A DNA stretch of 64,000 nt from an uncultured Chloroflexia bacterium (GTDB lineage Bacteria > Chloroflexota > Limnocylindria > Limnocylindrales > CSP1-4): positions 195,474-259,473 of the forward strand of contig CAVPPQ010000002.1 in NCBI GenBank assembly GCA_963707395.1, in the 5' to 3' direction. Numbering within the stretch: position 1 is the stretch's first letter; each line of letters starts with the position of its first letter. Shown here in pieces: positions 30,737 through 51,173 of this stretch. The notes beneath the pieces were generated by a model. The model was given only the letters and a program-made list of their open reading frames with translations. It did not search any database and was not told the origin of the DNA. The position numbers and the translations under genes are program-made.

Positions 30737-30943
30737 CTAGAAGCGGCGGCGGCCGGGTGTGACCGCTGCGCCAACGACGGCGGCCTTGGCGACGGGCGAG
30801 GGGCCGGGGCCCACTGCTGCGCCAACGACGGCGGCCTTGGCGACGGGCGAGGGGCCGGGGCCCACCGCTGCACCCACCACGGCAGCCTTGGCGACGGGGG
30901 CGCCGATGACCCCGACTCCGGCACGACCTGGTCCGAGTGGCAT
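30737..30943 (-). CDS. 68-aa Gly/Ala/Val-rich peptide built from three 17-aa tandem repeats (PVAKAAVVGAAVGPGPS), translationally coupled to the upstream gene
   Basis: ATG 5-6 nt after AAGGAG and 1 nt after the upstream stop. Underlying 51-bp DNA repeat x3. Alternative frames give Pro/Arg-rich nonsense. Confidence 0.4.
   Translation of the reverse strand: MPLGPGRAGVGVIGAPVAKAAVVGAAVGPGPSPVAKAAVVGAAVGPGPSPVAKAAVVGAAVTPGRRRF
30765..30917. repeat. 51-bp tandem repeat x3 (gctgcgccaacgacggcggccttggcgacgggcgaggggccggggcccact…)
   Basis: Copies begin at 30765, 30816 and 30867. The third is diverged. Coincides with the small repeat-peptide ORF. Confidence 0.8.
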
Positions 30944-31513: not shown

Positions 31514-33457
31514 TCAGTCGCCACTCGGAGAGGCGGTCCTGGCGGGCGCGGGTGAGGCACCCAGGTCCGGCGATGAGCCCGGGGCCGAGGACGTCTCGAT
31601 GCCGGCGCCCGCGGCGGCCTGTACCTCCAGCACAAGGCGCCGCTCGATGGCGTCGAGGGTCTCGATGGCCTCGCTGGATGTGCCGGGCCGCGTCCGCCGC
31701 TCGCGCACGAAGGTCAGGATGTCGTCGATGATCGCGACGCGTGCGGCGGCGCCCGGCGAGCGCAGCGCGTAGGCGAGGAGCCCGTCCGAGGTGCGCGCGT
31801 AGACACGCGCCCGCCCGATGGATTCGAAGACACCCGCACGTTCCAGCGTGTCCCTGGCGCCCGGCCGCAGGTGGCTCAGCCAGAGCTCCACGCCGGCCGT
31901 CGTGAGGTGCTCATTGAGACGCTCCAGCACCTCCACGACGGGCACGTCCACCTCCGGCGTCAGCGAGAGATCGAGCAGGACCACCGAGCAGGCGGGCTCG
32001 GCGTGCTCGGCGGCCTCCAGGATGCCGTCCCGGATGGAGGCGGCGTTGGCGAAGTAGAGCATCTCGTCCGGGCGCACGATGATGAGACCCGGGACCGCCG
32101 CCTCAGGCGACGTGCGCAGGTCGAGGGGCTCGAGGCCGCCGCTGGCTCGGCCCAGGAACGTGAGACGCGGCTCGCTCGTGCGCCAGATGAGGACGCCCAG
32201 CGAGGCCACGACGGCGATGCCCAGGGCCTGCAGGGTGGGCACCACGAGGACCCCCACGAGCGCGATCATGGCCAGCCAGAAGTCGGCACGCCGCAGCTCC
32301 CAGAGCTGGCGCATCTTGCCCACCTTCATCATGCCCATGACAGCCACGATGACGATGGCCCCGAGCGTGGCCTCCGGCAGCGGCTCGAAGATCGGCGTCA
32401 GGAACAGGGCCACCAGGGCCGTGGCCGCCGCGGCCGTCACCAGCGATGCCGGCGTGCGAGCCCCCGCGCGGTCGTTGGCGGCTGACTTGGAGAGCGAGGA
32501 GCCGATGGGGAACCCGGAGAAGAGGCCGGCGCTGGTGTTGGCCGCCCCGATGGCCACGAGCTCACGGTTCGGATCGATGCGCCCGCCGTGCCGGCGCGCG
32601 AACTCGTGGGCCGGACCGATGGCCTCGGCGAAGGCCACCAGGGCGATGCCCACGGCACCCACGAGAAGCAGCGGTACGGCATCCAGGCCGACGCCCGGCA
32701 ACGAGGGCCCGGCCAGGCCAGCGGGCAGGTCGCCCACCACGTGGACTCCCGCCGCCTCCAGCGCGAACACGATCGAGGCGGCGATGGAGGCCAGCAGCAC
32801 CACCAGCGCGGCGGGCACGCGCGGCAGCCGGTGCTCCAGCAGGAGCATGCCGGCGATGCCCGCCAGGCCCACGGCCAGGGTCAGCAGGTCCGTCTCGCCG
32901 ACGTGCCGGACGATCTCGACCACCACCTGGACGGCCGATTCACCGTGCGCCTCGATACCCAGGAGCTTGGGGACCTGTTTGATCGAGATGAGCAGCGCCA
33001 GGCCGAAGACGAAGCCCGTGAGCACCGATTCCGAGAAGAACTGGGCGATGCGGCCGAGCTTCAGGACGCCGGCCCCGATGGAGATGAGGCCGGCCAGGAT
33101 GGCCAGCGCGGCCGTGAGGGCCACGAACTCGGCGCTGCCTTCCACGGCGATCTCGCCGATGGTCGCGGCCGACATGATGGCGATCGCCGACGAGACCGCC
33201 ACCACCAATTGGCGCGACGTGCCCAGCGCCGCGTACGCCAGCAGGGCCGCCGGCGCCGCGTAGAACGCGTACTCCGGTGGCACGCCCGCCAGTTCTGCGT
33301 AGGCCATGCCTTCCGGGACGAGGATGGCGCAGACGGTCAGGCCGGCGATGACATCGAAGCGCAGCCAGCTCCGCTGGTAGCCCGGGAGCCAGGAGAACAC
33401 GGGCCAAGTCCGGGGGGTCGGTGCGGTGGTGGCGCGACGGGTCATGGCGGCTTTCAA
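31514..33457 (-). CDS. SulP family sulfate/anion permease with C-terminal STAS domain
   Basis: 647 aa. Polytopic core with SulP signature region, and a C-terminal STAS fold. Confidence 0.85.
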   Translation of the reverse strand: MKAAMTRRATTAPTPRTWPVFSWLPGYQRSWLRFDVIAGLTVCAILVPEGMAYAELAGVPPEYAFYAAPAALLAYAALGTSRQLVVAVSSAIAIMSAATIGEIAVEGSAEFVALTAALAILAGLISIGAGVLKLGRIAQFFSESVLTGFVFGLALLISIKQVPKLLGIEAHGESAVQVVVEIVRHVGETDLLTLAVGLAGIAGMLLLEHRLPRVPAALVVLLASIAASIVFALEAAGVHVVGDLPAGLAGPSLPGVGLDAVPLLLVGAVGIALVAFAEAIGPAHEFARRHGGRIDPNRELVAIGAANTSAGLFSGFPIGSSLSKSAANDRAGARTPASLVTAAAATALVALFLTPIFEPLPEATLGAIVIVAVMGMMKVGKMRQLWELRRADFWLAMIALVGVLVVPTLQALGIAVVASLGVLIWRTSEPRLTFLGRASGGLEPLDLRTSPEAAVPGLIIVRPDEMLYFANAASIRDGILEAAEHAEPACSVVLLDLSLTPEVDVPVVEVLERLNEHLTTAGVELWLSHLRPGARDTLERAGVFESIGRARVYARTSDGLLAYALRSPGAAARVAIIDDILTFVRERRTRPGTSSEAIETLDAIERRLVLEVQAAAGAGIETSSAPGSSPDLGASPAPARTASPSGD

Positions 33458-33509
33458 TCATCGCGCTTCGATGCCCGGCCCGCGGGGCCGGAGATCAGCC
33501 CGTGAGGGT

Positions 33510-34061
33510 TCAGTCGGCCTCGTTGCCCGGTTGGAGCTCAGTGGCCTCGCGCTTCGGCAGCACCATGCGCTCGCGGTCGATGACGTAGGTCCAGGGCAGG
33601 CCGGAGTTCTTCCAGCCGTTCTTCATGCGCATCCCGTCGAAGACGCTGTCGGGGTCCTTGACCTGGCCGCCCTCCATGCCGTCGACGATGTTCCAGGCGT
33701 TCGTGTAGCCGTTCTTGGCCAGCAGGTTGATGGCCATCGCGCTGCGGCCGCCCGAGCGGCAGGAGACGAGCAGGGTGTCGTCTGGCTTCGCCCACGCCTG
33801 GACCGCGGGCAGGAACCCGGGGTTGAGGTCCCAGTGGAAGCCCTGCTTCTCGGCATCCCATTCGAAGGACTGGAAGGCGAGCGGGATGTTGGTGGCCATC
33901 GGCGCGTGGCCCACGAAGACGTACTCCTCGGGCGTGCGGACGTCGAGGATGCGCACGCCCTCGGGGTCCGCCTGCCAGCGGTCAAACGCCTCCCGGGCGG
34001 TGAGGTACAGGCCCAGGCTGGTCAGCCGCTCCTGGGCGAGGGTGGGGGGGTCCACGGTCAT
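33510..34061 (-). CDS. rhodanese-domain sulfurtransferase
   Basis: Active-site loop CRSGGRS. Confidence 0.8.
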   Translation of the reverse strand: MTVDPPTLAQERLTSLGLYLTAREAFDRWQADPEGVRILDVRTPEEYVFVGHAPMATNIPLAFQSFEWDAEKQGFHWDLNPGFLPAVQAWAKPDDTLLVSCRSGGRSAMAINLLAKNGYTNAWNIVDGMEGGQVKDPDSVFDGMRMKNGWKNSGLPWTYVIDRERMVLPKREATELQPGNEAD

Positions 34062-34130
34062 CGCGATCTCCTGTCCAGTCGTCGGGCCCGCGAAGGCGGA
34101 CCCGACGTGAGAGGTGGTGGTTCGTGACGG

Positions 34131-35309
34131 CTACCCGAGCCGGGTGCCCTCGACCTCGAGCCCGCCCCCTTCTGGCAGCTTGCTCCAGCTACGCCGTGCC
34201 CACTCCTCCTTGAGGACCTCCTCGGCCGCCTTCTCCAGGAACTCGGGCCTCGCCCAGGCAGCCACGTCGAAGTCGTTCTTGATGTAGCCGTGGCTGAACA
34301 TGAAGTCCTTGCCGATCTCGACGCACGCCAGGTTGCGGGCGCTCAGGCTCGGCACCATGTCGACGTCCTTGATGCCCTGGTAGGTGTCCTCGGCGTCGAG
34401 GTAGAACGTCTGGCGGTTGAGGATCTCGCCGGCGGCGCGCTTGTTGCGATTGGCCCAGAGGCCGACCTTGATCATGGCCTTCATGTAGGCGATGACCAGC
34501 TCGGGATGTTCCTCGGCCATGACGTCGGTGCAGGTGATGACAGCCGGCGTGTTGGCGACCTGGATCCGCCAGTCCGAGCGCTTCGACAGGTCCTCGATCA
34601 TGGCGATCTTGCCAGTCGCTTCCTGGAGATGCTGGAAGACCTTGCTCTGAGTGTAGATGGCATCGACGACGCCACCAAGCAGCGCCTTCTCGAGCGGGCG
34701 GAAGGCGTAGTCGTGCTTGTGGTCGCGGCGCATCCACAGCTCCGACGGGTTGTTCATCGTGACCCGGAGCATCTCGGGCTTGTCGTACCAGTCGTCCGGG
34801 TAGGGGAACTCGACGAGCTCGATGTCATCCATCGTCATGTCGTTGAGCATGAGCATGGACTCGATGCCCATGTGCTCCTGGATCCGCCACCAGTCGTTCT
34901 TGATGGTGTTCAGGCTCTTGCTGATGCCGATCTTCCTGCCCTTGAGGTCCTGCATCCGGAAGATCCGGTCGTCAGCGCGGACCGCCATGCAGCCGCCCTC
35001 GTGCACCCACGTCGCCCCGAGCAGCACGGTGCGGCGGAGGTCGGCGTTGACGTGGATCGGCGGGTAAAGCCCCCCGAAGCGGATCAGGTTGTCGAGGTTG
35101 TGGATGTAGTGCGGGTACCAGTTGTTCTCCGGAGCGTGGCGGAAGTAGGCGTACTCGACGCCGATCTTCTTGAACTCCTCACGGCACCACCCCAGCTCTT
35201 GGTCCACGTTGTTGGCGGACACCATGGGGCAGTTGGTGAACCAGACCTCGTTCCAGTCCAGGGGCACGGTCGTGGAGACACGCTTCGGCGCCTGGTTCTC
35301 GTTGGTCAT
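34131..35309 (-). CDS. cytoplasmic SsuA/THI5/DszB-fold protein; DszB (2-hydroxybiphenyl-2-sulfinate desulfinase)-like
   Basis: No signal peptide. ATG after GGAGGAGG. Blocks TNCPM, RFGGLYPPIH and GCMAVRADDRIFRMQDLKGRKIGISKS match my recollection of DszB blocks SNCPV, RFGGEIPPLL and GFFVRDDSPITAAADLAGRRIGVSAS. Confidence 0.55.
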   Translation of the reverse strand: MTNENQAPKRVSTTVPLDWNEVWFTNCPMVSANNVDQELGWCREEFKKIGVEYAYFRHAPENNWYPHYIHNLDNLIRFGGLYPPIHVNADLRRTVLLGATWVHEGGCMAVRADDRIFRMQDLKGRKIGISKSLNTIKNDWWRIQEHMGIESMLMLNDMTMDDIELVEFPYPDDWYDKPEMLRVTMNNPSELWMRRDHKHDYAFRPLEKALLGGVVDAIYTQSKVFQHLQEATGKIAMIEDLSKRSDWRIQVANTPAVITCTDVMAEEHPELVIAYMKAMIKVGLWANRNKRAAGEILNRQTFYLDAEDTYQGIKDVDMVPSLSARNLACVEIGKDFMFSHGYIKNDFDVAAWARPEFLEKAAEEVLKEEWARRSWSKLPEGGGLEVEGTRLG

Positions 35310-35491
35310 GGGGGCTTCCTCCTCCGGTGCTCCGGTCGGGCGAACGCGCGACGGCGCGTGACGGTCACGAACATCGAGCCTCGGCCACGATGACGGCTGC
35401 GAGTTGACCACCATCGACCTCGCGCCGCATCCTCCGCGGCGGTGGAGCCACGACGAGGACGAGGTGCCGCGCTCGGGCTAGTCTGCTGACG

Positions 35492-36556
35492 GTGATGACG
35501 ACGCCCACTCCGATCCCCCTGCTCATCGACTGCGACACCGGCATCGACGATGCCCTGGCGCTGCTCTATGCCGCCGCCTCGCCAGAGGCGGAGATGGTGG
35601 GGGTCAGCTGCGTGGCCGGCAACGTGGAGTTGCCTCACATCGTGCGCAACACGCTGGCCGTGCTGGAGCTGGCCGGTCGGGCGGACATCCCCGTGGCCGC
35701 CGGGGCCGACCGACCCCTGGTCCGGGCGCTTCGCACCGCCGCGGACACGCACGGTCCGACGGGCCTCGGCTACGCGGTCCTCCCGGCGCCCAGCCGGGGT
35801 GTCGTCGCCGAAGGTGCCGCAGGGGTCATCGCGGCGGCCGCCCGCGCCCGTCCCGGTGAGCTGACGTTGGTGACGCTCGGCCCCCTGACCAACGTGGCGC
35901 TCGCGCTGCAGCGCGAGCCTGACCTGCCGCGCCTGCTGCAGCGGATGGTGATGATGGTCGGCTCGTACCGCTCACCGGGCAACACCGCGCCGACCATGGA
36001 GTGGAACGCCGGGCTGGACCCGGAGGCGCTGGCCACGGTGCTCGCAGCCTGGAGCGCGGCGCGGGTCGCCGATCGAGCCATCGGCCGGCCGGTCGCCTTC
36101 GGCCTGGATGTCACGGAGCGGGCCAAGCTGACCCCGGCCCACCTGGAGCGCCTCGCTTCCCGGGCGGGCGGCGGGTCCGCGAACGCCGTGGTGCGCTTCG
36201 TGGCCGACGCCCTGCGCTTCTACTTCGAGTTCCACAGCCGCTACGACGGCTTCTACGGTGCCTTCATCCACGATGCCCTGGTGCTCGCGGCGGCGCTTGA
36301 CCCCGATCTGGCCCGCACGGAGGCGCTGGCCGTGGAGGTGGAGCTCGAGGGTCGCTGGACGACCGGCGAGACCGTGACCGACTGGCGGCGGGCCTGGGGC
36401 CGCGAACCGAACCTCGACGTCGCCGTTGACGCTGACATCGGGACCTTCTTCGAGCATCTCATCGAGCGCGTCGGCGACCTGGCGGCTCAGCGGCCGGGAG
36501 AGCGGCCGGGCGGCAGGGACCACGCTCCAGCGGCGACCCCGGAGGACCACTGCTGA
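35492..36556 (+). CDS. nucleoside hydrolase (inosine-uridine preferring family)
   Basis: N-terminal DCDTGIDDA calcium/ribose-binding aspartate motif. Confidence 0.85.
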   Translation: MMTTPTPIPLLIDCDTGIDDALALLYAAASPEAEMVGVSCVAGNVELPHIVRNTLAVLELAGRADIPVAAGADRPLVRALRTAADTHGPTGLGYAVLPAPSRGVVAEGAAGVIAAAARARPGELTLVTLGPLTNVALALQREPDLPRLLQRMVMMVGSYRSPGNTAPTMEWNAGLDPEALATVLAAWSAARVADRAIGRPVAFGLDVTERAKLTPAHLERLASRAGGGSANAVVRFVADALRFYFEFHSRYDGFYGAFIHDALVLAAALDPDLARTEALAVEVELEGRWTTGETVTDWRRAWGREPNLDVAVDADIGTFFEHLIERVGDLAAQRPGERPGGRDHAPAATPEDHC

Positions 36557-37638
36557 TGCCGCAGACCTGGCTGCGGGTCGGCGTCGGCCTCCTCGCCTTC
36601 CTCGTCGTCGGCCTGGCAGGCGTGCTCGTGCTGCGTCAGATCGACCCGGAGCAGGCGGCTGACTCGTGGTCGCTGGTGACGCTCCTGGCCATCCCGGCCG
36701 GCATCACCGCCTACGCGCTCATCGAGCACCGCCAGACGGGGCGCCTGGACTCGATCACGCGCCAGTTCGACACGCACACGCTGGTGCTGATGCCGGTGGC
36801 CGTGGCCCTCAACATCGTCCTCGGCACGGCCGTGGCGAGCGCACTCAAGATCCCCATCTATCTCGATTCGATCGGCACCATCCTGGTGGCCGTCCTGGCC
36901 GGACCACTGGCCGGCGCCGTGACGGGCTTGCTGGCCAACCTGGTCTGGACGTACCTGGCACCGCCGCCCTTCGCCAGCCCGTACGCGGCGCCCTTCGCCC
37001 TCGTGGCCGTCGTCGTGGGCCTGCTGGCCGGAACGTTCGCGCGCTGGGGCTGGCTGCGACCCCGACCCCACACCTCGGGGCGGCAGCTGGCGATGGGGGC
37101 AGCCGCGGCCATCGGCCTGCTCGCCCTGATGGCCGTGCTGGCACTGGGGGTCTGGCAGGTCGCCTCGCTGGGTAGTGCGCTGGCGCCGTCGAGCGACGAG
37201 CTGGCCTTCACCGCGCTGGGCTGGCTGTCCATGGCGCTCGTGGTGGGCACGGGCATCGGCCTGGTCTGGCTCCTGGTGCGCCAGCGCGACCTGACCGCGG
37301 CCTACATCGTGGTGGCCGGTGCGTTGACCGGCCTCTGTGCGGCCGTGGTGGCTGCCCCGATCGCCGCCAGCCTCTTCGGGGGCGTGACAGGTTCAGGGGC
37401 GGACTTCGTGATCGCCGCCTTCCGCCAGGCTGGCGCGGACCTGCAGCAGGCGGTCCTGGGCCAGAGCCTCGTCTCCGATCCCATCGACAAGGTCGTCACG
37501 TACTTCGTCGTCTACGTCATCCTGGGCACGCTGGCGGTACGCACGAAGGCTCGTTTCCCGCAAGGTGAGTACCTCATCGAACGACCGACCGATGAGGCCA
37601 CGGGTCGGACGGATGGAGCCATCCCCGCTGCGCGCTGA
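36556..37638 (+). CDS. ECF-transporter substrate-specific (S) component-like membrane protein, unusually large (360 aa)
   Basis: Start overlaps the hydrolase stop. Polytopic, with an S-component-like N-terminal core and SDPIDKVVTYFVVYVILG C-terminus. Immediately followed by EcfT and two EcfA genes. Confidence 0.5.
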   Translation: MPQTWLRVGVGLLAFLVVGLAGVLVLRQIDPEQAADSWSLVTLLAIPAGITAYALIEHRQTGRLDSITRQFDTHTLVLMPVAVALNIVLGTAVASALKIPIYLDSIGTILVAVLAGPLAGAVTGLLANLVWTYLAPPPFASPYAAPFALVAVVVGLLAGTFARWGWLRPRPHTSGRQLAMGAAAAIGLLALMAVLALGVWQVASLGSALAPSSDELAFTALGWLSMALVVGTGIGLVWLLVRQRDLTAAYIVVAGALTGLCAAVVAAPIAASLFGGVTGSGADFVIAAFRQAGADLQQAVLGQSLVSDPIDKVVTYFVVYVILGTLAVRTKARFPQGEYLIERPTDEATGRTDGAIPAAR

Positions 37639-38431
37639 GCGGAGCCTGCCGGCCGGCGTCGCCGTTCCTGGCCCGACGGCCTGGCACCGGCTTGACCCGC
37701 TCACCCGTCTGACGCTCTCACTGGTCAGCGTGCTGGCGGTGGTCGTGCTGGGCGGCGTCGTGGGCCCGCTGCTCCTTTGGCTGCTGGCCGTGCTGCTGCC
37801 CGCGTCCCGGGCCCGTGTGCTGCCCGCCGTGTGGCGAGTGTCCGTGCTCCTATCGCTGCCGCTGGCGGCCAGCGCCGCCATCGTCAACGTGTTCTTCACG
37901 CCCGGCGGCGGCACGGTCGTGGCGCAGGTCGGCCCGCTCACCATCACGGCGGAGGGCATCGGGGTCGCCGTGGAGGTCGTCGTGCGCGTCCTGGTGATGT
38001 CCGGCGCGGTGACGCTCTACTACCTCACCACGCGGCCGGCCGAGCTTGTGGCCAGCCTCCAGGCGCACGGCGCGCCGCCACGGCTGACCTTCGTCATCCA
38101 CAGCGCCGTGTCCATGATCCCGCGCCTGGCCGAGCGCGCCTCCGAGGTGACCGCGGCGCAGCGGGCTCGCGGACTGGACAGCGAGGGCAGCCTGTCGCGG
38201 CGCCTGCATGGCGTGATGGCCGTGGCCGGACCCACGGTGAGCGGCGCCATCGCGGAAGCCGAGGCGCGCACGCTGGCGCTGGAGGTCCGCGGCTTCACCC
38301 GTCCCGGGCGCCATACGCTGCTGTGGATCCCGGCGGACAGCGATGGCCAGCGCCTGGCACGCTGGGGCATGGCCGCGGGCGTGGTCCTGCTGGTGGCGCT
38401 CCGGCTGGCCGGCTGGCGGCTACCGTGGTGA
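37613..38431 (+). CDS. energy-coupling factor transporter transmembrane component EcfT/CbiQ
   Basis: HRLDPLTRL (DPRxKL-type) motif and C-terminal ALEVRGF coupling motif. Confidence 0.7.
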   Translation: MEPSPLRAERSLPAGVAVPGPTAWHRLDPLTRLTLSLVSVLAVVVLGGVVGPLLLWLLAVLLPASRARVLPAVWRVSVLLSLPLAASAAIVNVFFTPGGGTVVAQVGPLTITAEGIGVAVEVVVRVLVMSGAVTLYYLTTRPAELVASLQAHGAPPRLTFVIHSAVSMIPRLAERASEVTAAQRARGLDSEGSLSRRLHGVMAVAGPTVSGAIAEAEARTLALEVRGFTRPGRHTLLWIPADSDGQRLARWGMAAGVVLLVALRLAGWRLPW

Positions 38432-38556
38432 TGTCGGCACCACGGGGACAAGTGCCGGGCCGCACCGGGCTCCCCGGGCCCATCGGGCTGGTCGGGCTCT
38501 CAGCCGGTCGGGCTCCCCAAGCTGGTCGCGCTTCGCCGACAGATGCGCGGACGCCG

Positions 38557-39417
38557 GGCCGCGACATGCTGACGCTCAGCGGCGCCACGTACCGCTACCC
38601 GGGCGCGGCGGTGGACAGCCTCCGGGACGTCTCGCTGGTGCTGCCGGAGGGCAGTGTCACGGGCATCGTGGGCACGGCGGAGTCCGGCCTCTCCACGATC
38701 TGCCTGGTGTTGAGCGGGCTGGCGCCGCGCGTGGTCGGTGGCCACCTGCGGGGCTCTCTGCAGGTCGATGGCGAGGACACGGTCGGCTGGCCCATGCACC
38801 GACTCTGCGAGTCCGTCGTGCTGGGCGTCGGACGGCCCGGTGGTCAGCTCTCGATGGTGGCCGAGACCGTCTACGAGGAGGTCGCGTTCGGGCCCGCCAA
38901 CCTGGGGCTGCCGCGCGACGAGGTCATGGCACGCACGGAAGAGGCGCTCGAGCAGGTCGCCATCAGCCACCTGGCGGGCCGCGAGCCGCGCCTGTTGTCC
39001 GGCGGCGAGCATCAGCTGGTGGCGATCGCGGGCCTGCTGGCCATGCGGGCGCCACACCTGGTCCTCGACGAGCCGGTCGCCCACCTTGACGCACACGGCC
39101 GAGAGAAGGTCCTGGCGGCCGTCGCGAGCGCGGCCGCGGCGGGCACGGCCGTGCTCCTCGCCACCCGCTCGAGCGAGGTCGTGCTCCGCAGCTGCGCAAC
39201 GGTGCTGGTGATGGCCGGCGGGCGTGTCGTGGCACAGGGTCCCCCGGTGGAGGTCCTTGCCGACCCGGCGACCTGGGCGCTGGGCATCGCCGAGCCGACC
39301 GGCATGCGCCTCGAGCGGCTGCTGGCAGTCGAGCGCCTGCTGGCGGCGACCAGCATGGCATCGCCTTCGGGAGCCTCATCCGCGCTGCCGCAGCCTCCTC
39401 CCCCGGGTGCGCGCTGA
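38557..39417 (+). CDS. ECF/ABC ATPase component with degenerate Walker A (no P-loop lysine)
   Basis: Walker A position reads GIVGTAESGLST instead of GxxGxGK(S/T). Signature LSGGEHQ and Walker B LVLDEP are present. Confidence 0.65.
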   Translation, partial: GRDMLTLSGATYRYPGAAVDSLRDVSLVLPEGSVTGIVGTAESGLSTICLVLSGLAPRVVGGHLRGSLQVDGEDTVGWPMHRLCESVVLGVGRPGGQLSMVAETVYEEVAFGPANLGLPRDEVMARTEEALEQVAISHLAGREPRLLSGGEHQLVAIAGLLAMRAPHLVLDEPVAHLDAHGREKVLAAVASAAAAGTAVLLATRSSEVVLRSCATVLVMAGGRVVAQGPPVEVLADPATWALGIAEPTGMRLERLLAVERLLAATSMASPSGASSALPQPPPPGAR

Positions 39418-40247
39418 TGGACATCGAGCTGGAGGGCGTCAGCTTCGCCTACCCGTCCGGTCCGACGGTCCTGGACGGCCTCGACTTGGTCTTCCCGGGT
39501 GGCCGGTCGGTGGCCCTGGTGGGCGCCAACGGCAGCGGCAAGACGACCCTGGCTCGGCACCTGAACGGCCTCCTGCGCCCGACCCGTGGGCGCGTGCTGC
39601 TGGACGGCGCCGACATCGCGACCCGCCGCGTGGCCGACCTGGCCGCGAGCGTGGCCGTGGGCTTCCAGGATCCGGACCGGCAGGTGTTCTCGCGCAACGT
39701 GCGGGCCGAGGTCGAGTTCGGGCCGCGGCGGCTGCGCTTCTCCGCGGAGCGTCGCGAGCGGGTCGTCGCCGAGGCGCTCGAGGCGACCGGCCTCGACGAT
39801 GCCGCCCATGTCCACCCTCACGACCTCGGTGAGAGCCGCCGCATGCTCCTCGCGCTGGCCTCGCTGCTGGCCATGGAGACGGCCGTGCTCGTGCTCGACG
39901 AGCCGACGGTCGGCCTCGACCCTGCCGGGCGGGCACGGGTGGCCGGGGTCATGGCCAGGCTGCTGGCCGCAGCGAGGAGCGTCATCGTCATCAGCCACGA
40001 CATGCGCCTGGTGGCGGAGACCTGCGAGCGCGTCGTCGTGTTCGAGCACGGCCGCATCGCTCTCGATGGCAGTCCAGCCGACGTCTTCGCAGAGGCCTCG
40101 TGGCCGCTCCTGCACCGCGCCGGGCTGGAGCCGCCGGAGGCCGCACTCCTCGGCTCGCGACTGGGTCTCGGCTCCACCCCCACGGAGTCGGCCCTTCTGG
40201 CGGCCGCTCGGCGTCCGCACCCAGATCGCGACTGCACAGTCACTTGA
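39417..40247 (+). CDS. ECF/ABC ATPase component (canonical)
   Basis: Walker A GANGSGKTT and Walker B VLVLDEPT. ATGA overlap with the upstream ATPase. Confidence 0.8.
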   Translation: MDIELEGVSFAYPSGPTVLDGLDLVFPGGRSVALVGANGSGKTTLARHLNGLLRPTRGRVLLDGADIATRRVADLAASVAVGFQDPDRQVFSRNVRAEVEFGPRRLRFSAERRERVVAEALEATGLDDAAHVHPHDLGESRRMLLALASLLAMETAVLVLDEPTVGLDPAGRARVAGVMARLLAAARSVIVISHDMRLVAETCERVVVFEHGRIALDGSPADVFAEASWPLLHRAGLEPPEAALLGSRLGLGSTPTESALLAAARRPHPDRDCTVT

Positions 40248-40350
40248 CACGGCTTGGCGGATGGCAGGTACGATGACTCCTCGAGCGAGTGGAGGCCGGG
40301 ACATCGCCCGCCGGGTGCGCCTGCCTCCCGGCGCTGGAGGGTTCCTATCG

Positions 40351-41373
40351 ATGGTCAGGCGTATCTCCGTGTGCGCGGCCGCAGGGCTGCTGACACTCAC
40401 CGTGACCGTGGGCGGTGCCGTGGCCGTCGCCCAGGACGAGCCCCTCAAGGTCTTCGGCGCCTATGCGACGGAGATCGAGGAGCCCTGGGACGGCGTCATC
40501 CACGCAGCGCTGCAGGCCGAGGCTGACGCCGGTCGCATCGAGTACACCTTCGCCGACGGCCTGGGCTACTCGGGTGACATGGAGTTGACCCTGCGCGAGG
40601 TCTCCGAGATCGACGTGCCGGACATCATCTTCGGCGACGCCTTCGGCAACGAGGAGGCCGTGCGTGCCGTGGCCGCCGACTATCCCGACATCGCCTACGT
40701 CTTCGGCTCCGGCGGCGGTCCCGCCGACCCCAACTTCAGTGTCTTCGACAACTGGATCCACGAGCCCGCCTACCTGGCCGGCATGCTCGCCGGCGGCCTG
40801 ACCGAGACGGGCATCATCGGTGTCGTGGGCGGCGTGCCCGTTCCTGAGGTCAACCGCATCACCAACGCCTTCGTCGCTGGCGCCCGTGACGTCAACCCGG
40901 AGGTGGAGGCCAAGGTCAGCTTCATCAACAGCTGGTTCGACCCGGCCGCGGCCAAGGAAGCCGCGCTGGCCCAGATCGACGCCGGCGCGGACGTCCTCTA
41001 CGCGGAGCGCTTCGGCGTCATCGAGGCCGCCGACGAGAACGACCTCATCGCCGTGGGCAACATGAGCGACCAGTCCGCGCTGGCACCGGACAACGTCGTC
41101 ACCAGCGTGACCTGGAACATGACCCCGACCGCCGAGTACGTCATCGAGCAGGTCGCCGGCGGGACCTACACCGCCCAGGACCTGAAGGACTTCAGCATGG
41201 TCGCCAAGGGCGGTGCCGCACTGGCGCCCATCAACACGGCGCTCGTGCGCGAGGTGCCCGCGGATCTCGTCGAACAGGTCAAGGCCCGGGAGGCGGAGAT
41301 CGTCTCCGGCGTCTTCCGGGTGGACATCAACGAGTCGACCCCGCCCGGCTCGGACATCCCGCCGGCCGAATAG
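40351..41373 (+). CDS. BMP-family ABC transporter substrate-binding lipoprotein (PnrA-like nucleoside receptor)
   Basis: Signal peptide MVRRISVCAAAGLLTLTV, then a BMP/Med-like sequence. Confidence 0.8.
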   Translation: MVRRISVCAAAGLLTLTVTVGGAVAVAQDEPLKVFGAYATEIEEPWDGVIHAALQAEADAGRIEYTFADGLGYSGDMELTLREVSEIDVPDIIFGDAFGNEEAVRAVAADYPDIAYVFGSGGGPADPNFSVFDNWIHEPAYLAGMLAGGLTETGIIGVVGGVPVPEVNRITNAFVAGARDVNPEVEAKVSFINSWFDPAAAKEAALAQIDAGADVLYAERFGVIEAADENDLIAVGNMSDQSALAPDNVVTSVTWNMTPTAEYVIEQVAGGTYTAQDLKDFSMVAKGGAALAPINTALVREVPADLVEQVKAREAEIVSGVFRVDINESTPPGSDIPPAE

Positions 41374-41393
41374 CCGCCCTCCCTCTCACCAGC

Positions 41394-42914
41394 ATGATCG
41401 GCGACGGCGGCCAGGGCGACCTGGCCGCCGATCTGCGAGGCATCAGCAAGCGCTTCGGCGACCTCATCGCCAACGACGAGGTGGACCTCTCGCTGGCGCG
41501 AGGCGAGGTGCATGCCCTGCTGGGCGAGAACGGCGCCGGCAAGACGACGCTGATGCGCATCCTCTACGGGCTCACCCGGATGGACAGCGGCAGCATCCTG
41601 ATCGGCGATCGACCAGTCAGCATCGGCTCGCCGCGGGACGCCATCGCGGCCGGGGTGGGCATGGTCACCCAGCACTTCTCGCTGGTGCAGCCCATGACCG
41701 TGACGGAGAACCTCGTGCTGGGGCGCGCGCGAGGCGCGCGGCTGGACCTGGCCGCCGGGCGCCGCTCCGTGGAGGCCGCCGCGGAGCGCTTCGGCATCGC
41801 GGTCCGGCCGGAGGCCATCGTCTCGGAGCTCTCGGTCGGCGAGCAGCAGCGCGTCGAGATCGTCAAGGCCCTGGCGCGTGACTGTCGCGTGCTCATCCTC
41901 GACGAGCCCACGGCCGTCCTCGTGCCCCACGAGGTGGAGGCCCTCTTCGAGACCCTGCGGCGCCTCGTTGGCGAGGGCCTTTCGGTGGTCTTCATCAGCC
42001 ACAAGCTGGGCGAGGTGCGCGCCATCAGCGACCGGGTCAGCGTCATGCGGCGCGGGCGCATGGTCGGCACCGCCCCCGGATCGACCGACGAGCGCGAGCT
42101 GGCACGGATGATGGTGGGCAGGCCGACCTTCGGTGTCGGGCAGCAGGAGACCATCTGGGGGGGCGGGGAGCCTCGACTCAAGGTCCGCGAGGTCTCGGCG
42201 CTGGGCGGTCACGGGCGGCCGGCCCTGCACGGCGTCTCACTGGAGGTGCACGCGGGTGAGATCCTCGGCGTCGCCGGTGTCTCAGGCAATGGCCAGACCG
42301 AGCTGGCCGAGGTCCTCTCGGGCATGCGCCCCGTGACCAGCGGCTCGGTCCTGGTGCACGAGCAAGAGCTGGCGGGGGCGGAACCGGCGGTCGTCATGGC
42401 CGCCGGCGTGGGACGCATCCCGGAGGACCGGCACGCCAGCCTGGTGCTGGATCTGCCCGTCTCGTTGAACCTCATCCTCGAGCACATCGACGATTTCACG
42501 CGCGGCGGCCGCCTCGACCGTCGCGCTGTGGATGTCCACGCTCGAGAGCTCATCGAGCGCTACCGCATCAAGGCCCAGCCCGATGACCGCGTGGCCACCC
42601 TGTCCGGCGGCAACATCCAGAAGGTGCTCCTGGCACGGGTGCTGTCACGCGACCCGCACGTCATCGTCGTCTCACAGCCCACGCGCGGCCTGGACGTGGG
42701 CGCCAGCGAGTACGTGCGCGAGGAGCTCCTGGCGCACCGTCGCGACGGGGCGGCCATCCTGCTCATCTCCGAGGACCTCGACGAGCTGCTCTCCCTGTCC
42801 GACCGCATCGTGGTGCTCTACGAAGGTCGGGTCGTGGGCCGCATGGCGGCCTCGCAGGCCGAGCCGGAGCAGCTGGGCATGCTCATGGCCGGGCGCGGCC
42901 AGGCCGCGGCATGA
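41394..42914 (+). CDS. ABC transporter ATP-binding protein with two tandem nucleotide-binding domains (nucleoside/sugar importer type)
   Basis: Walker A GENGAGKTT in NBD1. Degenerate second NBD typical of NupA/RnsA-type proteins. 506 aa. Confidence 0.85.
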   Translation: MIGDGGQGDLAADLRGISKRFGDLIANDEVDLSLARGEVHALLGENGAGKTTLMRILYGLTRMDSGSILIGDRPVSIGSPRDAIAAGVGMVTQHFSLVQPMTVTENLVLGRARGARLDLAAGRRSVEAAAERFGIAVRPEAIVSELSVGEQQRVEIVKALARDCRVLILDEPTAVLVPHEVEALFETLRRLVGEGLSVVFISHKLGEVRAISDRVSVMRRGRMVGTAPGSTDERELARMMVGRPTFGVGQQETIWGGGEPRLKVREVSALGGHGRPALHGVSLEVHAGEILGVAGVSGNGQTELAEVLSGMRPVTSGSVLVHEQELAGAEPAVVMAAGVGRIPEDRHASLVLDLPVSLNLILEHIDDFTRGGRLDRRAVDVHARELIERYRIKAQPDDRVATLSGGNIQKVLLARVLSRDPHVIVVSQPTRGLDVGASEYVREELLAHRRDGAAILLISEDLDELLSLSDRIVVLYEGRVVGRMAASQAEPEQLGMLMAGRGQAAA

Positions 42915-44058
42915 CGCTGGAGGCCCGTCGGGCCGCAGAGACACGCTTCGGACGCACGGGGACCATCATCCTGGGGGCCCTGGTGGCCGTCCTGGCGGTG
43001 ACCGGGGGCGCCTTCATCATCGCCGGCGCCAACCCGGTCGATGCCACCTTCGCCTACTTCGTCGCGCCGCTGACCCGCGAGTTCACGCTCTGGGAGGTCC
43101 TCAATGTCTCGACGCCGCTGCTCTTCGCGGGCGCGGCCGTGGCCATCGCCTTCCGGAGCGGCTACTGGAACATCGGTGTCGAAGGACAGCTGCTGATGGG
43201 TGCCGTGGCCGCGGCCGGCATCGGCCAGGTCGTGCACGGCTGGCCATCCATCGTGGTGCTGCCGCTCATGATCGTGGCCGGCGCACTGGCCGGCGCGGCA
43301 TGGGCCCTTGTGCCAGCCCTCCTGCGCGTGCGCCTGGGCATCGACGAGGTCGTCACCACGCTGCTCCTGAACCCCGTGGCGCTGCTGGTCGTGGAGGCCC
43401 TCCTCCACGGGCCATGGACGGACCCGGAGACCGGCTTCCCGGAATCGCCGCGCATCGCCGAAGCCGCCGAGTTCCCCAAGCTGGCGGCCTTCCTGCCCTT
43501 CCTGGGCAAGTCGCGGCTGCACATCGGGTTCATCATCGCCATCGTCATCATCGTCGCCGCCTGGTGGGTGCTGAGCCGCACTTCGACGGGCCTGCGCGTG
43601 CGTGCCGTGGGCCTCTCGCCACACGGGGCGCGCTTCGCCGGGATCAAGGTCGAGCGGACGCTCCTGCGGGTGGCGCTCATCAGCGGCGCGGTGGCCGGCG
43701 TGGCCGGCGTGAGCGAGGTGGCCGGCATCCAGTTCCGCCTCACAGCGGGCATCTCGCCGGGCTTCGGCTACACGGGCATCGTGGTGGCCATGCTGGGCGG
43801 CCTGACCATGCCCGGCGTCCTCCTGGCCGGCCTGCTGCTGGGCGACCTCGCCGTGGGCGCCTCGTCTGCGGTGCGCAGCCTGCAGATCCTTCACAGCTGG
43901 GGGCCGTGGTCGAGGGCACCCTGTTGCTGGTCGTCATCGGGGCCCTGGCGCTGCGCCGGGCCAGGTCGCGACAGGAGGATGAGCGCCCCGCCGACGAGGG
44001 TGAGCCGCCGCCGGCCGAGCCCAAGTCCATGGCGTCCGCCGAGGGGCCGCCGGGATGA
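42911..44058 (+). pseudogene. ABC transporter permease (BMP-system, NupB-like) with single-base frameshift near 43883-43888 (pseudogene or homopolymer sequencing error)
   Basis: Frame A encodes the permease up to …AVRSLQI, then degenerates into Cys/Trp nonsense. Frame B (ORF 42532..44058) carries the proper end …PSQLGAVVEGTLLLVVIGALALRR and an ATGA overlap with the next permease. One extra C in cagatCCttca restores it. Confidence 0.6.
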
Positions 44059-44969
44059 ACTTCCTGGCTGACATCCTGGCGGCCACGTTCCGCAACGCCA
44101 CGCCGCTCGTCTACGGCACGGTCGGGGAGACCTACGCGGAGCGGTCCGGCGTCCTCAACCTGGGCATCGAGGGCACGATGTACGCGGGAGCCTTCTTCGG
44201 CTTCGCCGTGGCCTTCCAGACTGGGAACCCCCTGGTCGGTCTCGTCGCCGCGATCGTCGTGGGCATGGTCGCAGGCGGCCTCATGGGGCTGCTCACGGTG
44301 ACGCTGGGAGCCAACCAGCACGTCAGCGGCCTGGGTCTGACCATCGGCCTCATCGGCATCTCCGAGTTCGCCAACCGGCTCATCTTCTCGGGCGACACGC
44401 TGGCCCGCATCGAGCCCATGCCGCTCTGGGATCCGCTGGCCGGCCTGGGTGACATCGGCACGATAGCCAACCAGTACGGCCTGACCTACCTGGCCTTCCT
44501 GGTCGTGGTGCCCGTGGCCTGGTGGGTGCTGAGCCGAACGCCGCTGGGCCTGTCGATCCGCGCCGTGGGCGAGAACCCCGAGGCGGCCGACGTGGCCGGC
44601 ATCAGCGTCTTCCGCATCCGCTATGTGGCGCTCATGATCGGTGGCGCGCTGATGGCGGTGGGCGGCGCATTCATCACGCTCTCGATGCTGGGCACCTTCA
44701 CCCTGGACATCATCGCCGGGCGCGGTTGGGTGTGCATCGCGCTCGTCATCTTCGGGCGCTGGCGCATCTTCCGCGGCGTGCTCGGCGCACTCGTCTTCGC
44801 GGCGGTCTTCTCGCTGGGCCTGCGCTTGCGCATCACGCCCGGCTTCGAGGGCGTGCCCAACGAGCTCATGCTGGCCCTGCCGTACGTGGTGGTCATCGCG
44901 GCGCTCGCCCTGTCGGGCCGCAACGTGCCATATCCCGGCGCCTACCTGAAGGCATACCGTCGTACCTAG
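44055..44969 (+). CDS. ABC transporter permease (BMP-system, NupC-like)
   Basis: 304 aa, polytopic, branched-chain/ribose-permease-like. Confidence 0.8.
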   Translation: MNFLADILAATFRNATPLVYGTVGETYAERSGVLNLGIEGTMYAGAFFGFAVAFQTGNPLVGLVAAIVVGMVAGGLMGLLTVTLGANQHVSGLGLTIGLIGISEFANRLIFSGDTLARIEPMPLWDPLAGLGDIGTIANQYGLTYLAFLVVVPVAWWVLSRTPLGLSIRAVGENPEAADVAGISVFRIRYVALMIGGALMAVGGAFITLSMLGTFTLDIIAGRGWVCIALVIFGRWRIFRGVLGALVFAAVFSLGLRLRITPGFEGVPNELMLALPYVVVIAALALSGRNVPYPGAYLKAYRRT

Positions 44970-45024
44970 GCAGGAGCCGGGCAGCGCCGCAGGGCGCCCA
45001 CGGCAACCATCAGAAGGAGGGCAC

Positions 45025-45531: not shown

Positions 45532-46023
45532 CTACCCCTCCTCGGTTCGGTCCAGCGCGGCCTGGATCTGCGCCTCGGCCTCCGCGTCCAGGGTGGTCTG
45601 GTAGACCTTGCCCTTGTACGGCTCCAGGGCGCCGACCACGGCGGACGCATTGCCGGTGCCGAGCACGAAGAGGGCGGACGTGCCCGCGGTCAGGTCGCGG
45701 GTGACATCCTCGACGAGCTTCTTGTCGACGTTGTGGTGCAACGAGCGGCCGATGACCCCGCCGATGGCAGCTCCGATGGCGAGACCGGCCACGGGGAAGA
45801 AGACCAGTCCAAGCAGGAGGCCCAGCGCACCGCCGACCACGGCTCCCCCGGCCGTGGTGCGGTCGAAGCCGTGGTGGACGTGGACCTTGCCATCGGCGTC
45901 CTTCTCGACCACCGCCACGTCGTCGATCTGCGCGCCGTGGGCGCTCTGCAGCGACTTGAGCCGTTCACAGGCCTGCCCGGCGCTCTCGCGGTCCTCGAAC
46001 GTGATGACCAGCAGTTGACTCAT
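45532..46023 (-). CDS. DUF1269 family membrane protein (soluble N-domain plus glycine-zipper TM segment)
   Basis: TAGGAVVGGALGLLLGLVFFPVAGLAIGAAIGGVIG GxxxG-rich segment. Confidence 0.7.
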   Translation of the reverse strand: MSQLLVITFEDRESAGQACERLKSLQSAHGAQIDDVAVVEKDADGKVHVHHGFDRTTAGGAVVGGALGLLLGLVFFPVAGLAIGAAIGGVIGRSLHHNVDKKLVEDVTRDLTAGTSALFVLGTGNASAVVGALEPYKGKVYQTTLDAEAEAQIQAALDRTEEG

Positions 46024-46146
46024 GGAGGCGCTCCTTTCTGACGCAGGCCTCGAGTGTATCGCCGCACGCCCTCCTGCGGCTCACGACCGCGCCTTCCGGA
46101 GCGACGTTCGACCGAACACTTGCCGTTCGCCACGCGGGCGGTGACG

Positions 46147-46548
46147 TCACGTCCGTTCCAGGACGACCTCGTTGACGGCGCCCTCGACGATCGTCCAGGC
46201 GCGCACCTCGGGCGGCTCGCCCAGGAAGGAGCAGAGCACGTAGAGCGCGTCGGGGTAGGCCGCCAGGCCGACGTCGGTGGCCGAGGGCCGTGGCGGCGAG
46301 GCGACGTGGGAGTGGACGATGGCCCAGATCACCTCGTCCGCGTCGTCGATCTCGAGCATGACGCGCAGCTGCTCGTCGGGGTCCATGAGATAGCGATAGG
46401 GAGAGGCAGCCGCGTTGCGCATGCCCACGAAACGCGTCGGGACGCCGCCGTCCTCGGGGGTCCGGTCGGAGACGAGGAGTCCGCAGCCCTCGTTGGGCAG
46501 GGCGTCCCGCAGCCAGTCGACGAGCTCGTCGCGGATGCGGGGCGACAT
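46147..46548 (-). CDS. mec: JAMM/MPN+ metalloprotease, Mec+-like (CysO C-terminal processing and cysteine release)
   Basis: JAMM motif E…HSHVASPPRPSATD; Mec-like N-terminus (RIRDELVDWLRDALPNEGCG). Start set at the internal ATG; the ORF could extend upstream to 46746. Confidence 0.7.
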   Translation of the reverse strand: MSPRIRDELVDWLRDALPNEGCGLLVSDRTPEDGGVPTRFVGMRNAAASPYRYLMDPDEQLRVMLEIDDADEVIWAIVHSHVASPPRPSATDVGLAAYPDALYVLCSFLGEPPEVRAWTIVEGAVNEVVLERT

Positions 46549-46866
46549 GGCGGCCGAGGCCGGCGTCCACGGCGGGCCGGCGCCGCGGCCGACGGCACCC
46601 CAGTCGGCCAGGTGGCGTTCCTCCGCGACCGCGCCCAGGTCGGCCGCCCGTTGCCAGGCCGCGACTCCGGGGACGGAGGCATCGCCCGTGACCGCCGGCT
46701 CGTGAGCCTCGGAGCGGATCGGAGACGCGCCGGCGCCGGAGGCCACGCCCGTGCCAGGACCCTGGCCGGTGCCGAGGATCCTCGCGGGTGCCGGGATCCT
46801 CGCCGGTGCTGGGGTCCTCGCGGGTGCTGGGGTCCTCGCCAGAGGTCGGGCCCCGGTCGCTGTCGC

Positions 46867-47886: not shown

Positions 47887-47898
47887 GAGCGTGGCGCC

Positions 47899-49801: not shown

Positions 49802-49839
49802 GGGAGTGTGCAGGGTACCCGATGCGGTGGGGTGGATGG

Positions 49840-51144: not shown

Positions 51145-51173
51145 GTCGGGTTCGGGTCGAGTGCCCGGCGCCG

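Follow-up and report, generated by a model that had tools for sequence, protein, structure and literature searches.

The locus described here raises the question of what a protein with the fold of a transport binding protein does inside the cytoplasm, next to a rhodanese and an anion permease. The window, a stretch of 64,000 nucleotides from an uncultured Chloroflexia bacterium, carries a minus-strand gene cluster (Table 1) that includes a protein of 392 residues whose relatives are named 'ABC transporter substrate-binding protein' in databases. The comparison that matters most is with DszB, the 2'-hydroxybiphenyl-2-sulfinate desulfinase (EC 3.13.1.3, PDB 2DE2/2DE3; orthologues TdsB and BdsB), an enzyme that releases sulfite.

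The gene cluster

Table 1. Features of the cluster, numbered from the first nucleotide of the window.
Feature	Position	Strand	Remarks
DszB-like cytoplasmic type-II PBP-fold protein, 392 aa	34131..35309	-	Catalytic-type C27, H67, R77, G79, G80; DszB is the sole PDB sequence match and top fold match; no signal peptide
Shine-Dalgarno-like GGAGGAGG	35318..35325	-	8 nt upstream of the ATG at 35309; sequence read directly
Single-domain rhodanese, 183 aa	33510..34061	-	Pfam PF00581, 6.3e-12; active-site loop CRSGGRS (C-X4-R, sulfurtransferase type)
SulP anion permease with C-terminal STAS domain, 647 aa from TTG (start uncertain)	31514..33457	-	Sulfate_transp PF00916, 2.4e-88; STAS PF01740, 2.5e-13
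DUF6325 protein, 173 aa	30945..31466	-	PF19850, 1.6e-7; travels with the SulP gene
MalT/LuxR-type STAND transcription regulator, 756 aa	27749..30019	-	AAA_16, MalT-like TPR, GerE; MalT model, 1.8e-69
Small conserved protein, 118 aa	27341..27697	-	Cluster c16, 9 related loci; module membership uncertain

The 392-residue start, rather than that of a 427-residue ORF, is correct because GGAGGAGG is suitably spaced from it and because homologues of 386–393 residues cover 98–100% of the protein. A simple scan of its N-terminus found no signal peptide (Kyte-Doolittle 12-mer maximum 0.53), and neither a lipobox nor a twin-arginine motif was found there, in agreement with the initial annotation, which had read this ORF as a protein without a signal peptide. 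The same annotation had placed a rhodanese and then a SulP/STAS permease downstream on the same strand, and the Pfam domains and coordinates bear this out; the intergenic gaps are 69 and 52 nt. The permease scored 387.3 bits against TIGR00815 (cutoff 380.45), and SulP-DUF6325 pairs are present in related loci L005, L008, L011, L012, L061 and L079. The MalT/LuxR-type STAND protein is likely the regulator of the cluster, the 118-residue protein had no Pfam or NCBIfam match, and a search of the window between 27 and 37 kb gave neither a promoter nor a terminator nor an Rfam element.

The solved protein nearest to the rhodanese is Ab-RLD of Acinetobacter baumannii (PDB 8W14, E = 4e-14), a demonstrated thiosulfate sulfurtransferase (PMC10925157) with thiosulfate:cyanide and thiosulfate:glutathione activities. 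The CRSGGRS loop aligns with CRSGNRS of 8W14 and 2FSX, and Ab-RLD and the window rhodanese share both the C-R-S-G-x-R-S loop and a C-terminal 'KNGW..LPW' extension. They differ in their operons, that of Ab-RLD being associated with a desulfurase encapsulin, whereas no encapsulin or shell gene was found among the recurrent neighbours of DszB-like genes. Cargo of an encapsulin or microcompartment, an idea raised by the C-terminal tail, Lys/Ala-rich N-extensions and this encapsulin-associated homologue, was rejected on the missing shell gene and on a tail unlike known targeting motifs.

Relationship to DszB

In a phmmer search of the PDB, DszB was the only match to the DszB-like protein at E ≤ 1 (aligned residues 24–361), and it was also the best match in fold comparison, where THI5 scored half as high; the fold is of the type-II PBP (SsuA/THI5-like) kind. 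The blocks that the initial annotation had matched to DszB, including the region of the catalytic cysteine, indeed align with it: TNC27PM with SNC27PV, RFGGLYPP with RFGGEIPP, and G..VRAD..DLKGRKIGIS with G..VRDD..DLAGRRIGVS. C27 corresponds to C27 of DszB in the alignment and is conserved in all 31 sequences compared; H67, R77, G79 and G80, which align with the DszB site formed by His60, Arg70 and Gly73, are invariant as well. In DszB, His60, Arg70 and the Gly73 backbone bind the sulfinate (PMC6100217).

These results bear directly on the reading implied by the database name, that of an ordinary SsuA/TauA-type transport binding protein or a THI5/NMT1 HMP-P synthase. Weak matches to Pfam NMT1 (24 bits) and NCBIfam SsuA_fam (42 bits) speak for it as well, but the latter is far under its cutoff of 163.5 and DszB itself yields the same weak NMT1 match. 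SsuA/TauA sulfonate-binding proteins are exported, non-catalytic and encoded with an ABC permease and ATPase, none of which applies here: the operon has no ABC permease or ATPase. Additionally, no THI5 sequence matched at E ≤ 1 in the PDB. With the missing signal, the weak family scores and DszB as the nearest protein in both sequence and fold, the synthase and the exported SsuA are effectively refuted, and this reading is extremely improbable. The fold is also that of 4,5-dihydroxyphthalate decarboxylase, and a (de)carboxylase of aromatic or enolisable acids, served by SulP as a bicarbonate or organic-acid carrier, is a highly improbable alternative. Nothing specific supported selenium (seleninate), arsenic or cyanide/thiocyanate readings.

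The likeness to DszB does not extend to the hydrophobic biphenyl pocket (F61, W155, F203). By approximate loop alignment W155 falls within an insertion found only in DszB, F203 aligns with K198 of a polar DHKHD lid and F61 with Y68; since this pocket is not conserved, it gives no guide to the substrate. Compared with DszB, the DszB-like protein has a Trp/His/Asp-rich lid insertion of about 30 residues and a conserved C-terminal tail. Two more cysteines, C42 and C260, are invariant and specific to the clade, and together with the D-H-K-H-D lid they could instead be a sign of a persulfide relay or metal chemistry.

Conservation and distribution of the clade

The DszB-like clade is discrete, with 77–95% identity across at least 7 phyla and 498 species genomes from soil, freshwater and marine phyla, whereas records of DszB come almost solely from fuel-desulfurising actinomycetes. 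The next full-length relatives share at most 44% identity, and the DszB-type catalytic design is common to a large family of more than 900 clusters at 50% identity. Two relatives at 40–44% (P0127 and P0137) lie on contigs whose shortness makes their gene context uninformative. Recent horizontal transfer as the sole source of the high identity was ruled out: GC3 follows the host (46–98%), identity at four-fold sites is 0.23–0.64, dS is 0.4–1.1, near its composition-limited ceiling, and dN/dS is about 0.1. Both transfer and strong purifying selection are therefore required.

A sister clade of about 360 residues (Opitutaceae, Rhodovastum, Mesorhizobium), itself uncharacterised, is encoded within ssu-type ABC transporter operons. 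It shares 35–44% identity, the same invariant residues, a cytoplasmic location and nearby rhodanese genes. It differs in being diverse (50–60% identity among members), in tandem copies of up to 6, in TIC/RDGG motifs and in linkage to an ABC importer, a luciferase-type monooxygenase and a nitroreductase. The window's clade, by contrast, mostly has one copy per locus, shows extreme conservation and has a single-domain rhodanese as its linked gene. Two database 'fusions' of DszB-like protein and rhodanese (P0002 and P0412) have garbled junction sequences and are frameshift artefacts, not Rosetta-stone proteins.

Gene neighbourhoods of related loci

Of the neighbourhoods in the 498 carrier genomes the best 80 were covered. 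Neighbours in related loci were counted from a GC3-filtered gene call, as longest-ORF calls in DNA of high GC content picked up antisense shadow ORFs. In 76 of 84 related loci the DszB-like gene has a rhodanese-domain gene no more than 3 kb away, and SulP recurs in 24–27 of about 85–91; this clustering is far beyond chance. In most loci a rhodanese of the window's type is directly downstream. The dszA/dszC flavin monooxygenases, partners of DszB, are absent both from the window cluster and from the recurrent neighbours of the 84 loci, and no sulfinate-forming enzyme (monooxygenase or thiol dioxygenase) is linked to the DszB-like gene in the window's clade. Homologues of the MalT-type regulator occur in 37 related loci, and in 31 of these no more than 3 kb separates the regulator from the DszB-like gene. 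A literature search for DszB homologues with rhodanese, or for benzoyl-CoA reductase (BCR) with rhodanese and SulP, returned nothing relevant; a Chelatococcus desulfurisation paper concerns canonical DszB peptides and not the DszB-like protein described here.

These counts weigh against the idea that the protein is a non-catalytic cytoplasmic anion sensor, regulating the SulP/STAS transporter or the MalT-type regulator in the manner of the NrtA-like domain of CmpC/NrtC. Only about one locus in three has SulP and fewer than half have the regulator, the DszB-like/rhodanese two-gene unit also exists without any transporter, and a sensor would not be expected to keep an invariant Cys and His where DszB has its catalytic residues, which makes this role highly improbable.

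Other recurrent neighbours are BASS transporters, crotonase, nitroreductase-ferredoxin and CoA-disulfide-reductase-rhodanese (CoADR-rhodanese) fusions, the last in 15 of 91 genome or plasmid loci and 11 of 80 metagenome loci. Many related loci share single-domain rhodaneses, CoADR-rhodanese and an anion transporter with cst/CoA-persulfide-reductase-type clusters for sulfide and sulfane-sulfur detoxification; unlike these, the related loci showed no SQR, persulfide dioxygenase or CstR/BigR regulator, and the cst-type clusters have no DszB-like component. In one subclade the DszB-like gene is located between two HGD-D-type subunits and two BcrAD-type activases of an ATP-dependent reductase resembling the class I BCR/2-hydroxyacyl-CoA dehydratase (HAD)/double-cubane-cluster family (best matches BzdN 8S02 and the double-cubane model, all scores being far below family cutoffs). 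No such reductase is present in the window. Culturable carriers of the DszB-like gene include Rhizobium leguminosarum ATCC 14479, which has the complete BCR-like cluster, Chelatococcus asaccharovorans, Fodinibacter luteus JCM 17809 and Aliisedimentitalea scapharcae.

The reductases lead to a further rival, in which the protein is a sulfur-relay or substrate-presenting subunit and not a hydrolase. The oxyanion site would hold an S-oxyanion, either inorganic or attached to a protein (thiosulfate, sulfite, polythionate or S-sulfonate), and Cys27, perhaps with C42/C260, would form a covalent persulfide or thiosulfonate adduct exchanged with rhodanese and then reduced by CoADR-rhodanese, nitroreductase-ferredoxin or the BCR/double-cubane-type reductase. 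The near-universal rhodanese partner, the CoADR-rhodanese fusions, the two clade-specific cysteines and the position of the subclade gene between catalytic and activase genes, with a small-molecule reductase as best model, all fit such a relay; so do the lack of a CoA ligase or transferase near the subclade reductase, or of any organic-substrate-activating gene in the loci, and a very high conservation that suits a protein with several partner interfaces. On the other hand, the invariant residues match those of a C-S-cleaving enzyme exactly, reductase genes are lacking from many loci (those of Synechococcus and Aliisedimentitalea and that of the window among them), and a sulfur-carrier role has no known precedent for this fold. 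We consider the relay rather unlikely.

Proposed function

The DszB-like/rhodanese pair probably marks an undescribed sulfur-processing module. A desulfinase-type enzyme acting on a small polar sulfinate or thiosulfonate and working with the rhodanese has about an even chance of being its correct description. The initial annotation had suggested an organosulfur (sulfinate/sulfonate) desulfurisation module in which the permease handles released or imported sulfur species, and the present results support this in part. The analysis shows that the protein is homologous to DszB, shares its fold and its catalytic residues, is cytoplasmic and has a conserved gene linkage; that it is a catalyst, which class of substrate it takes, which way the rhodanese step runs and which ion is transported are inferences. 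In the desulfinase scheme the retained DszB constellation consists of an Arg and Gly-Gly backbone site that would hold the -SO2(-) group, a His, and a Cys thiol beside the bond to be cleaved. The substrate would be a small polar organosulfur oxyanion, either a sulfinate (R-SO2-) or a thiosulfonate (R-SO2-S-) once its sulfane sulfur is removed, and breakage of the bond to the SO2 group would yield sulfite. Ipso-protonation as in DszB requires a carbon that is aromatic or stabilises a carbanion in some other way; this narrows the range of plausible natural sulfinates and counts against the scheme. The co-transcribed thiosulfate-sulfurtransferase-type rhodanese would act on the same pool, either stripping sulfane sulfur from thiosulfonate or thiosulfate to give sulfinate or sulfite, or combining the sulfite that is set free with sulfane sulfur to give thiosulfate. 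SulP-DUF6325 might carry the substrate inward or sulfite, sulfate or thiosulfate outward, and the MalT-type regulator would switch the operon.

The recurrent reductases (nitroreductase-ferredoxin, CoADR-rhodanese and the BCR/HAD/double-cubane-like enzymes with their activases) are unneeded for hydrolytic desulfination and count against this explanation. A wider and rather doubtful reading accommodates them: the DszB-like protein and rhodanese would form the invariant core of a sulfur-processing system that has spread horizontally and so far gone unrecognised, for instance one of oxygen-independent reductive sulfonyl breakdown and not a hydrolytic copy of the 4S pathway. Fuller versions would add CoADR-rhodanese, ferredoxin-nitroreductase, crotonase and the ATP-driven BCR/double-cubane-type reductase, so as to convert, for example, sulfone, sulfonate and thiosulfonate compounds reductively to sulfite and sulfane sulfur, with the DszB-like protein performing or presenting the C-S/S-S cleavage step.

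Implications

To our knowledge, no other enzyme of the DszB kind has been characterised, and DszB itself is almost confined, as far as is known, to actinomycetes that desulfurise fuel. The clade described here, carried by about 500 species, is conserved like a housekeeping protein, misannotated everywhere as a transporter component and unstudied. Should its members prove to be desulfinases of some common natural sulfinate or thiosulfonate, the clade would fill a gap in the organosulfur cycle, that of sulfinate cleavage with joint handling of sulfite and sulfane sulfur. It would also offer new desulfinase scaffolds for biodesulfurisation, a process whose rate is limited by DszB. A partnership with the ATP-dependent reductase would point instead to new anaerobic sulfur chemistry.

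Organization of the locus

The window (G+C of about 70%) encodes a 392-aa protein with a SsuA/THI5 (type-II periplasmic-binding-protein) fold, followed on the same strand by genes for a rhodanese, a SulP permease and a DUF6325 protein. The intergenic gaps between these four genes are only 69, 52 and 47 nt, which is compatible with a single operon; a search between 27 and 37 kb of the window found no promoter, terminator or riboswitch. The 392-aa start is correct rather than that of a 427-aa ORF, since GGAGGAGG is located 8 nt ahead of the ATG at 35309 and homologues of 386–393 aa span the protein end to end. Its N-terminus lacks a hydrophobic segment (max KD(12) 0.53), a lipobox and a Tat motif; the ORF, start, neighbors and lack of a signal peptide described in the initial annotation were confirmed in every particular. 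Nucleotide identity between the window and a Microflora-Danica 'Chloroflexia' MAG (L008, MFD02979.bin.2.161) is 89–93% across the full 21 kb of the MAG locus.

Coordinates of the features in the window and in related loci (L numbers)
Feature	Position	Strand	Remarks
DszB-like ORF, 392 aa	34131-35309	-	
Conserved tail (residues 375-392)	34131-34187	-	WSKLPxGGGLxxExxRLG
Rhodanese, 183 aa	33510-34061	-	
SulP permease, 647 aa	31514-33457	-	STAS domain
DUF6325 protein, 173 aa	30945-31466	-	
51-nt tandem repeat	30762-30898		2.7 copies, 93% match
MalT/LuxR-type STAND regulator, 756 aa	27749-30019	-	beyond short repeat-containing spacer
Divergent genes	35492-45000	+	inosine-uridine nucleoside hydrolase (Pfam 6.7e-91); ECF-type S-component-like membrane protein; then ORFs resembling ABC/ECF transporter genes by eye
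Second small DUF1269/DUF6325-like ORF	45532-46023	-	by eye
ORFs with N-termini resembling cysteine synthase, SufS-type cysteine desulfurase, Rrf2-type regulator	46867-52708	-	by eye
Four tandem tight-clade paralogues	L004 8001-13685		Lutimonas sp. MAG
HGD-D cluster	L090 6457-15768		R. leguminosarum ATCC 14479 plasmid NZ_CP030763.1
HGD-D cluster	L028 4717-12120		actinobacterial MAG
64% homologue	L091 4776-12380		R. leguminosarum bv. trifolii 22B plasmid pRL22b1
Sister-clade locus	L089 10001-16696		Opitutaceae MAG JACSRI010000122.1; up to six tandem paralogues
Sister-clade locus	L087 7023-10870		Rhodovastum atsumiense; up to six tandem paralogues

The tandem repeat located between the DUF6325 and regulator genes would translate, in two or more frames, into Pro/Ala/Gly-rich repeats. 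The divergent nucleoside hydrolase is a neighbor only in the closest loci (L008, L011 and L043) and is thus probably outside the DszB-like module. If real, the putative ORFs at 45532–52708 would be further sulfur-metabolism genes about 11–17 kb from the DszB-like gene.

Relationship to DszB

Among all PDB chains searched by sequence, the sole match was DszB (2DE2/2DE3; E 3e-9, residues 24–361), the 2'-hydroxybiphenyl-2-sulfinate (HBPS) desulfinase of the final step of the 4S pathway, and the three blocks that the initial annotation had matched to DszB align as it described. The comparisons it proposed also pointed to DszB: a confident AlphaFold2 model (pLDDT 88.6, pTM 0.87; 33-sequence alignment) ranks DszB first in Foldseek (E 1.3e-19), a distant-relative profile matches DszB with 99.9% probability (E 6e-35, 318 columns), and the catalytic Cys/His/Arg are retained. 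In an alignment of the protein, its close and distant relatives (25–80% identity) and DszB, invariance is confined to C27, H67, R77, G79, G80, G124 and L153, the first five of which correspond to DszB Cys27, His60, Arg70, Gly72 and Gly73. In DszB, Cys27 is essential whereas His60 and Arg70 hydrogen-bond the sulfinate (PMC6100217). A transporter or THI5 role is much less likely: the Pfam NMT1 match is weak (24 bits, 66 residues) and gives no evidence of THI5 membership since DszB itself scores 27 bits, and the score of 42 against NCBIfam SsuA_fam falls far short of the 163.5 cutoff.

Judged by its sequence, the window protein is not an HBPS desulfinase. In an approximate loop alignment, the hydrophobic-contact residues cited for DszB are not conserved; W155 falls within an insertion unique to DszB, and F203 corresponds to the charged D196-H197-K198-H199-D200, part of a Trp/His/Asp-rich lid. 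No dszA/dszC or ssuD-like monooxygenase was found in the window cluster or among the recurrent neighbors of 84 loci.

The xNC and RFGG motifs are common to DszB and the window's clade, whereas a sister clade (about 360 aa, 35–44% identical) shows TIC and RDGG. Sister-clade genes reside inside ssu-type ABC operons (binding protein, permease, one to six DszB-like copies and ATPase), alongside luciferase-type monooxygenases, nitroreductases and 530–550-aa rhodanese proteins. Such a setting is classic for organosulfur scavenging and lends support to a desulfinase function of the family as a whole.

Conservation and spread of the clade

Related proteins form 2,977 clusters in a 90%-identity database, the best 120 of which are all 77–91% identical to the query. 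In a 50%-identity library, a single full-length sequence, 65% identical, stands for the whole clade; full-length relatives beyond it reach at most 44%, and 931 representatives are related at E≤1e-3. Relatives were found in 498 genomes (one genome per species scanned), the best 80 being 85–95% identical and labeled as Chloroflexia, Anaerolineae, Thermoleophilia, Actinomycetes, Acidimicrobiia, Acidobacteriota, Nitrospira, Ignavibacteria, Burkholderiales, Alpha- and Delta-proteobacteria. This wide range is confirmed by isolates (Fodinibacter luteus, Nitrospira sp. NS4, Chelatococcus asaccharovorans, Aliisedimentitalea scapharcae, Synechococcus sp. RedBA-s and Rhizobium leguminosarum).

In the 120 cluster representatives, 187 of the 392 positions are at least 97% invariant. 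Recent transfer alone is insufficient to explain this identity, given that third-position G+C tracks the host (46% in Lutimonas, 94–98% in high-GC carriers), identity with the window gene at four-fold sites ranges from 0.23 to 0.64, NG86 dS is 0.4–1.1, near the ceiling permitted by these base compositions, and dN/dS is about 0.1. The pattern requires horizontal spread together with long, strong purifying selection.

The tail that ends all clade members is predicted by AF2 to be disordered, and some members (P0013, P0052, P0118 and P0391) are extended at the N-terminus by a short helical motif and then a low-complexity stretch rich in Lys, Ala and Pro. Two DszB-like/rhodanese fusions (P0002, 493 aa; P0412, 533 aa) have garbled junctions and look like frameshift or assembly artefacts merging adjacent genes. 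Clade members are always named 'ABC transporter substrate-binding protein' or 'hypothetical' in databases, and a literature search on the clade found nothing.

Gene neighborhoods

The neighborhood comparison covered 80 genome loci plus four isolate or MAG contexts. In 76 of these 84 loci, a rhodanese-domain gene is found no more than 3 kb from the DszB-like gene, mostly directly downstream; by tblastn, 49 loci have the window's 183-aa type, 29 a 131-aa type and 15 a CoA-disulfide reductase (CoADR)-rhodanese fusion, counts that overlap as a locus may hold more than one type. Other recurrent neighbors are MalT/LuxR regulators (37 loci), SulP (24–27), MFS (19) and BASS/SBF (16–18) transporters, crotonase (13–15), DUF6325 (13), arylsulfatase (11–12) and a ferredoxin-nitroreductase fusion (3–4). 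The smallest unit, in marine Synechococcus and Aliisedimentitalea, is the DszB-like gene and rhodanese alone. The active loop of the window's rhodanese (CRSGGRS) is of the sulfurtransferase type, and among solved proteins it is closest to Ab-RLD (8W14), for which thiosulfate sulfurtransferase activity has been demonstrated and which bears persulfide and thiosulfate adducts (PMC10925157). The four paralogues of the Lutimonas MAG are 77, 71, 63 and 67% identical to the query and lie near MarC, crotonase, ferredoxin-nitroreductase, DinB and SnoaL proteins and a rhodanese.

On the plasmid of R. leguminosarum ATCC 14479, a 68%-identical homologue is flanked by two HGD-D-type subunits and two BcrAD-type activases, followed by a BASS transporter, two rhodaneses, SulP and a bestrophin-like protein. 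An actinobacterial MAG shares this arrangement, as do at least 12 contigs from metagenomes (L092, L093, L097, L100, L101, L103, L105, L106, L107, L113, L129 and L142; gene order read for L092, L093 and L106). The recurring cluster comprises two HGD-D (BzdN/O- or double-cubane-like), DszB-like, two BcrAD-type activases, BASS and two rhodaneses, ending in SulP or CoADR-rhodanese. In some loci the HGD-D pair is present twice; a BoxA-like ferredoxin-FNR and an SDR are additionally encoded in L106, and a cupin in L092 and L093. The best matches for the reductase subunits are BzdN (8S02, E 1e-40) and the NCBI double-cubane-reductase model, but all scores are far under family cutoffs, and no CoA ligase or transferase was seen at these loci. 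Partner proteins are 70–90% identical between Rhizobium and unrelated carriers across phyla. On pRL22b1, genes for a polar-amino-acid ABC transporter and a homocysteine S-methyltransferase precede the homologue and a CoADR-rhodanese is encoded on the other strand, a possible hint at substrates derived from S-methylated amino acids.

The associations with CoADR-rhodanese, nitroreductase and benzoyl-CoA reductase/double-cubane-like proteins, two extra invariant cysteines in the window's clade and its housekeeping-level conservation motivate the main rival explanation, a sulfur-relay or substrate-presenting partner of reductases, which we regard as unlikely. Sensor and decarboxylase roles are much less likely.

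Proposed function

The most economical reading, to which we give about an even chance, is a putative desulfinase-type enzyme acting on a polar substrate, coupled to the rhodanese and with SulP-DUF6325 or BASS as carrier of the anion. The -SO2(-) group would be held on R77/G79-80 and the adjacent bond broken by C27/H67, releasing sulfite. The polar lid suggests a small and hydrophilic substrate rather than biphenyl. Thiosulfonates serve as donors for rhodaneses, and the obligate rhodanese partner suggests either that the physiological substrate may be a thiosulfonate whose sulfane sulfur is stripped first, or that the sulfite set free may be coupled to sulfane-sulfur handling. Of the desulfurization module initially proposed, the DszB-like, cytoplasmic protein with its catalytic residues and sulfur context stands, but the pathway probably differs from a simple 4S-like step. 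The clade is a worthwhile experimental target given its extreme conservation, its universal misannotation, its close coupling to rhodanese and its link to ATP-dependent reductases.
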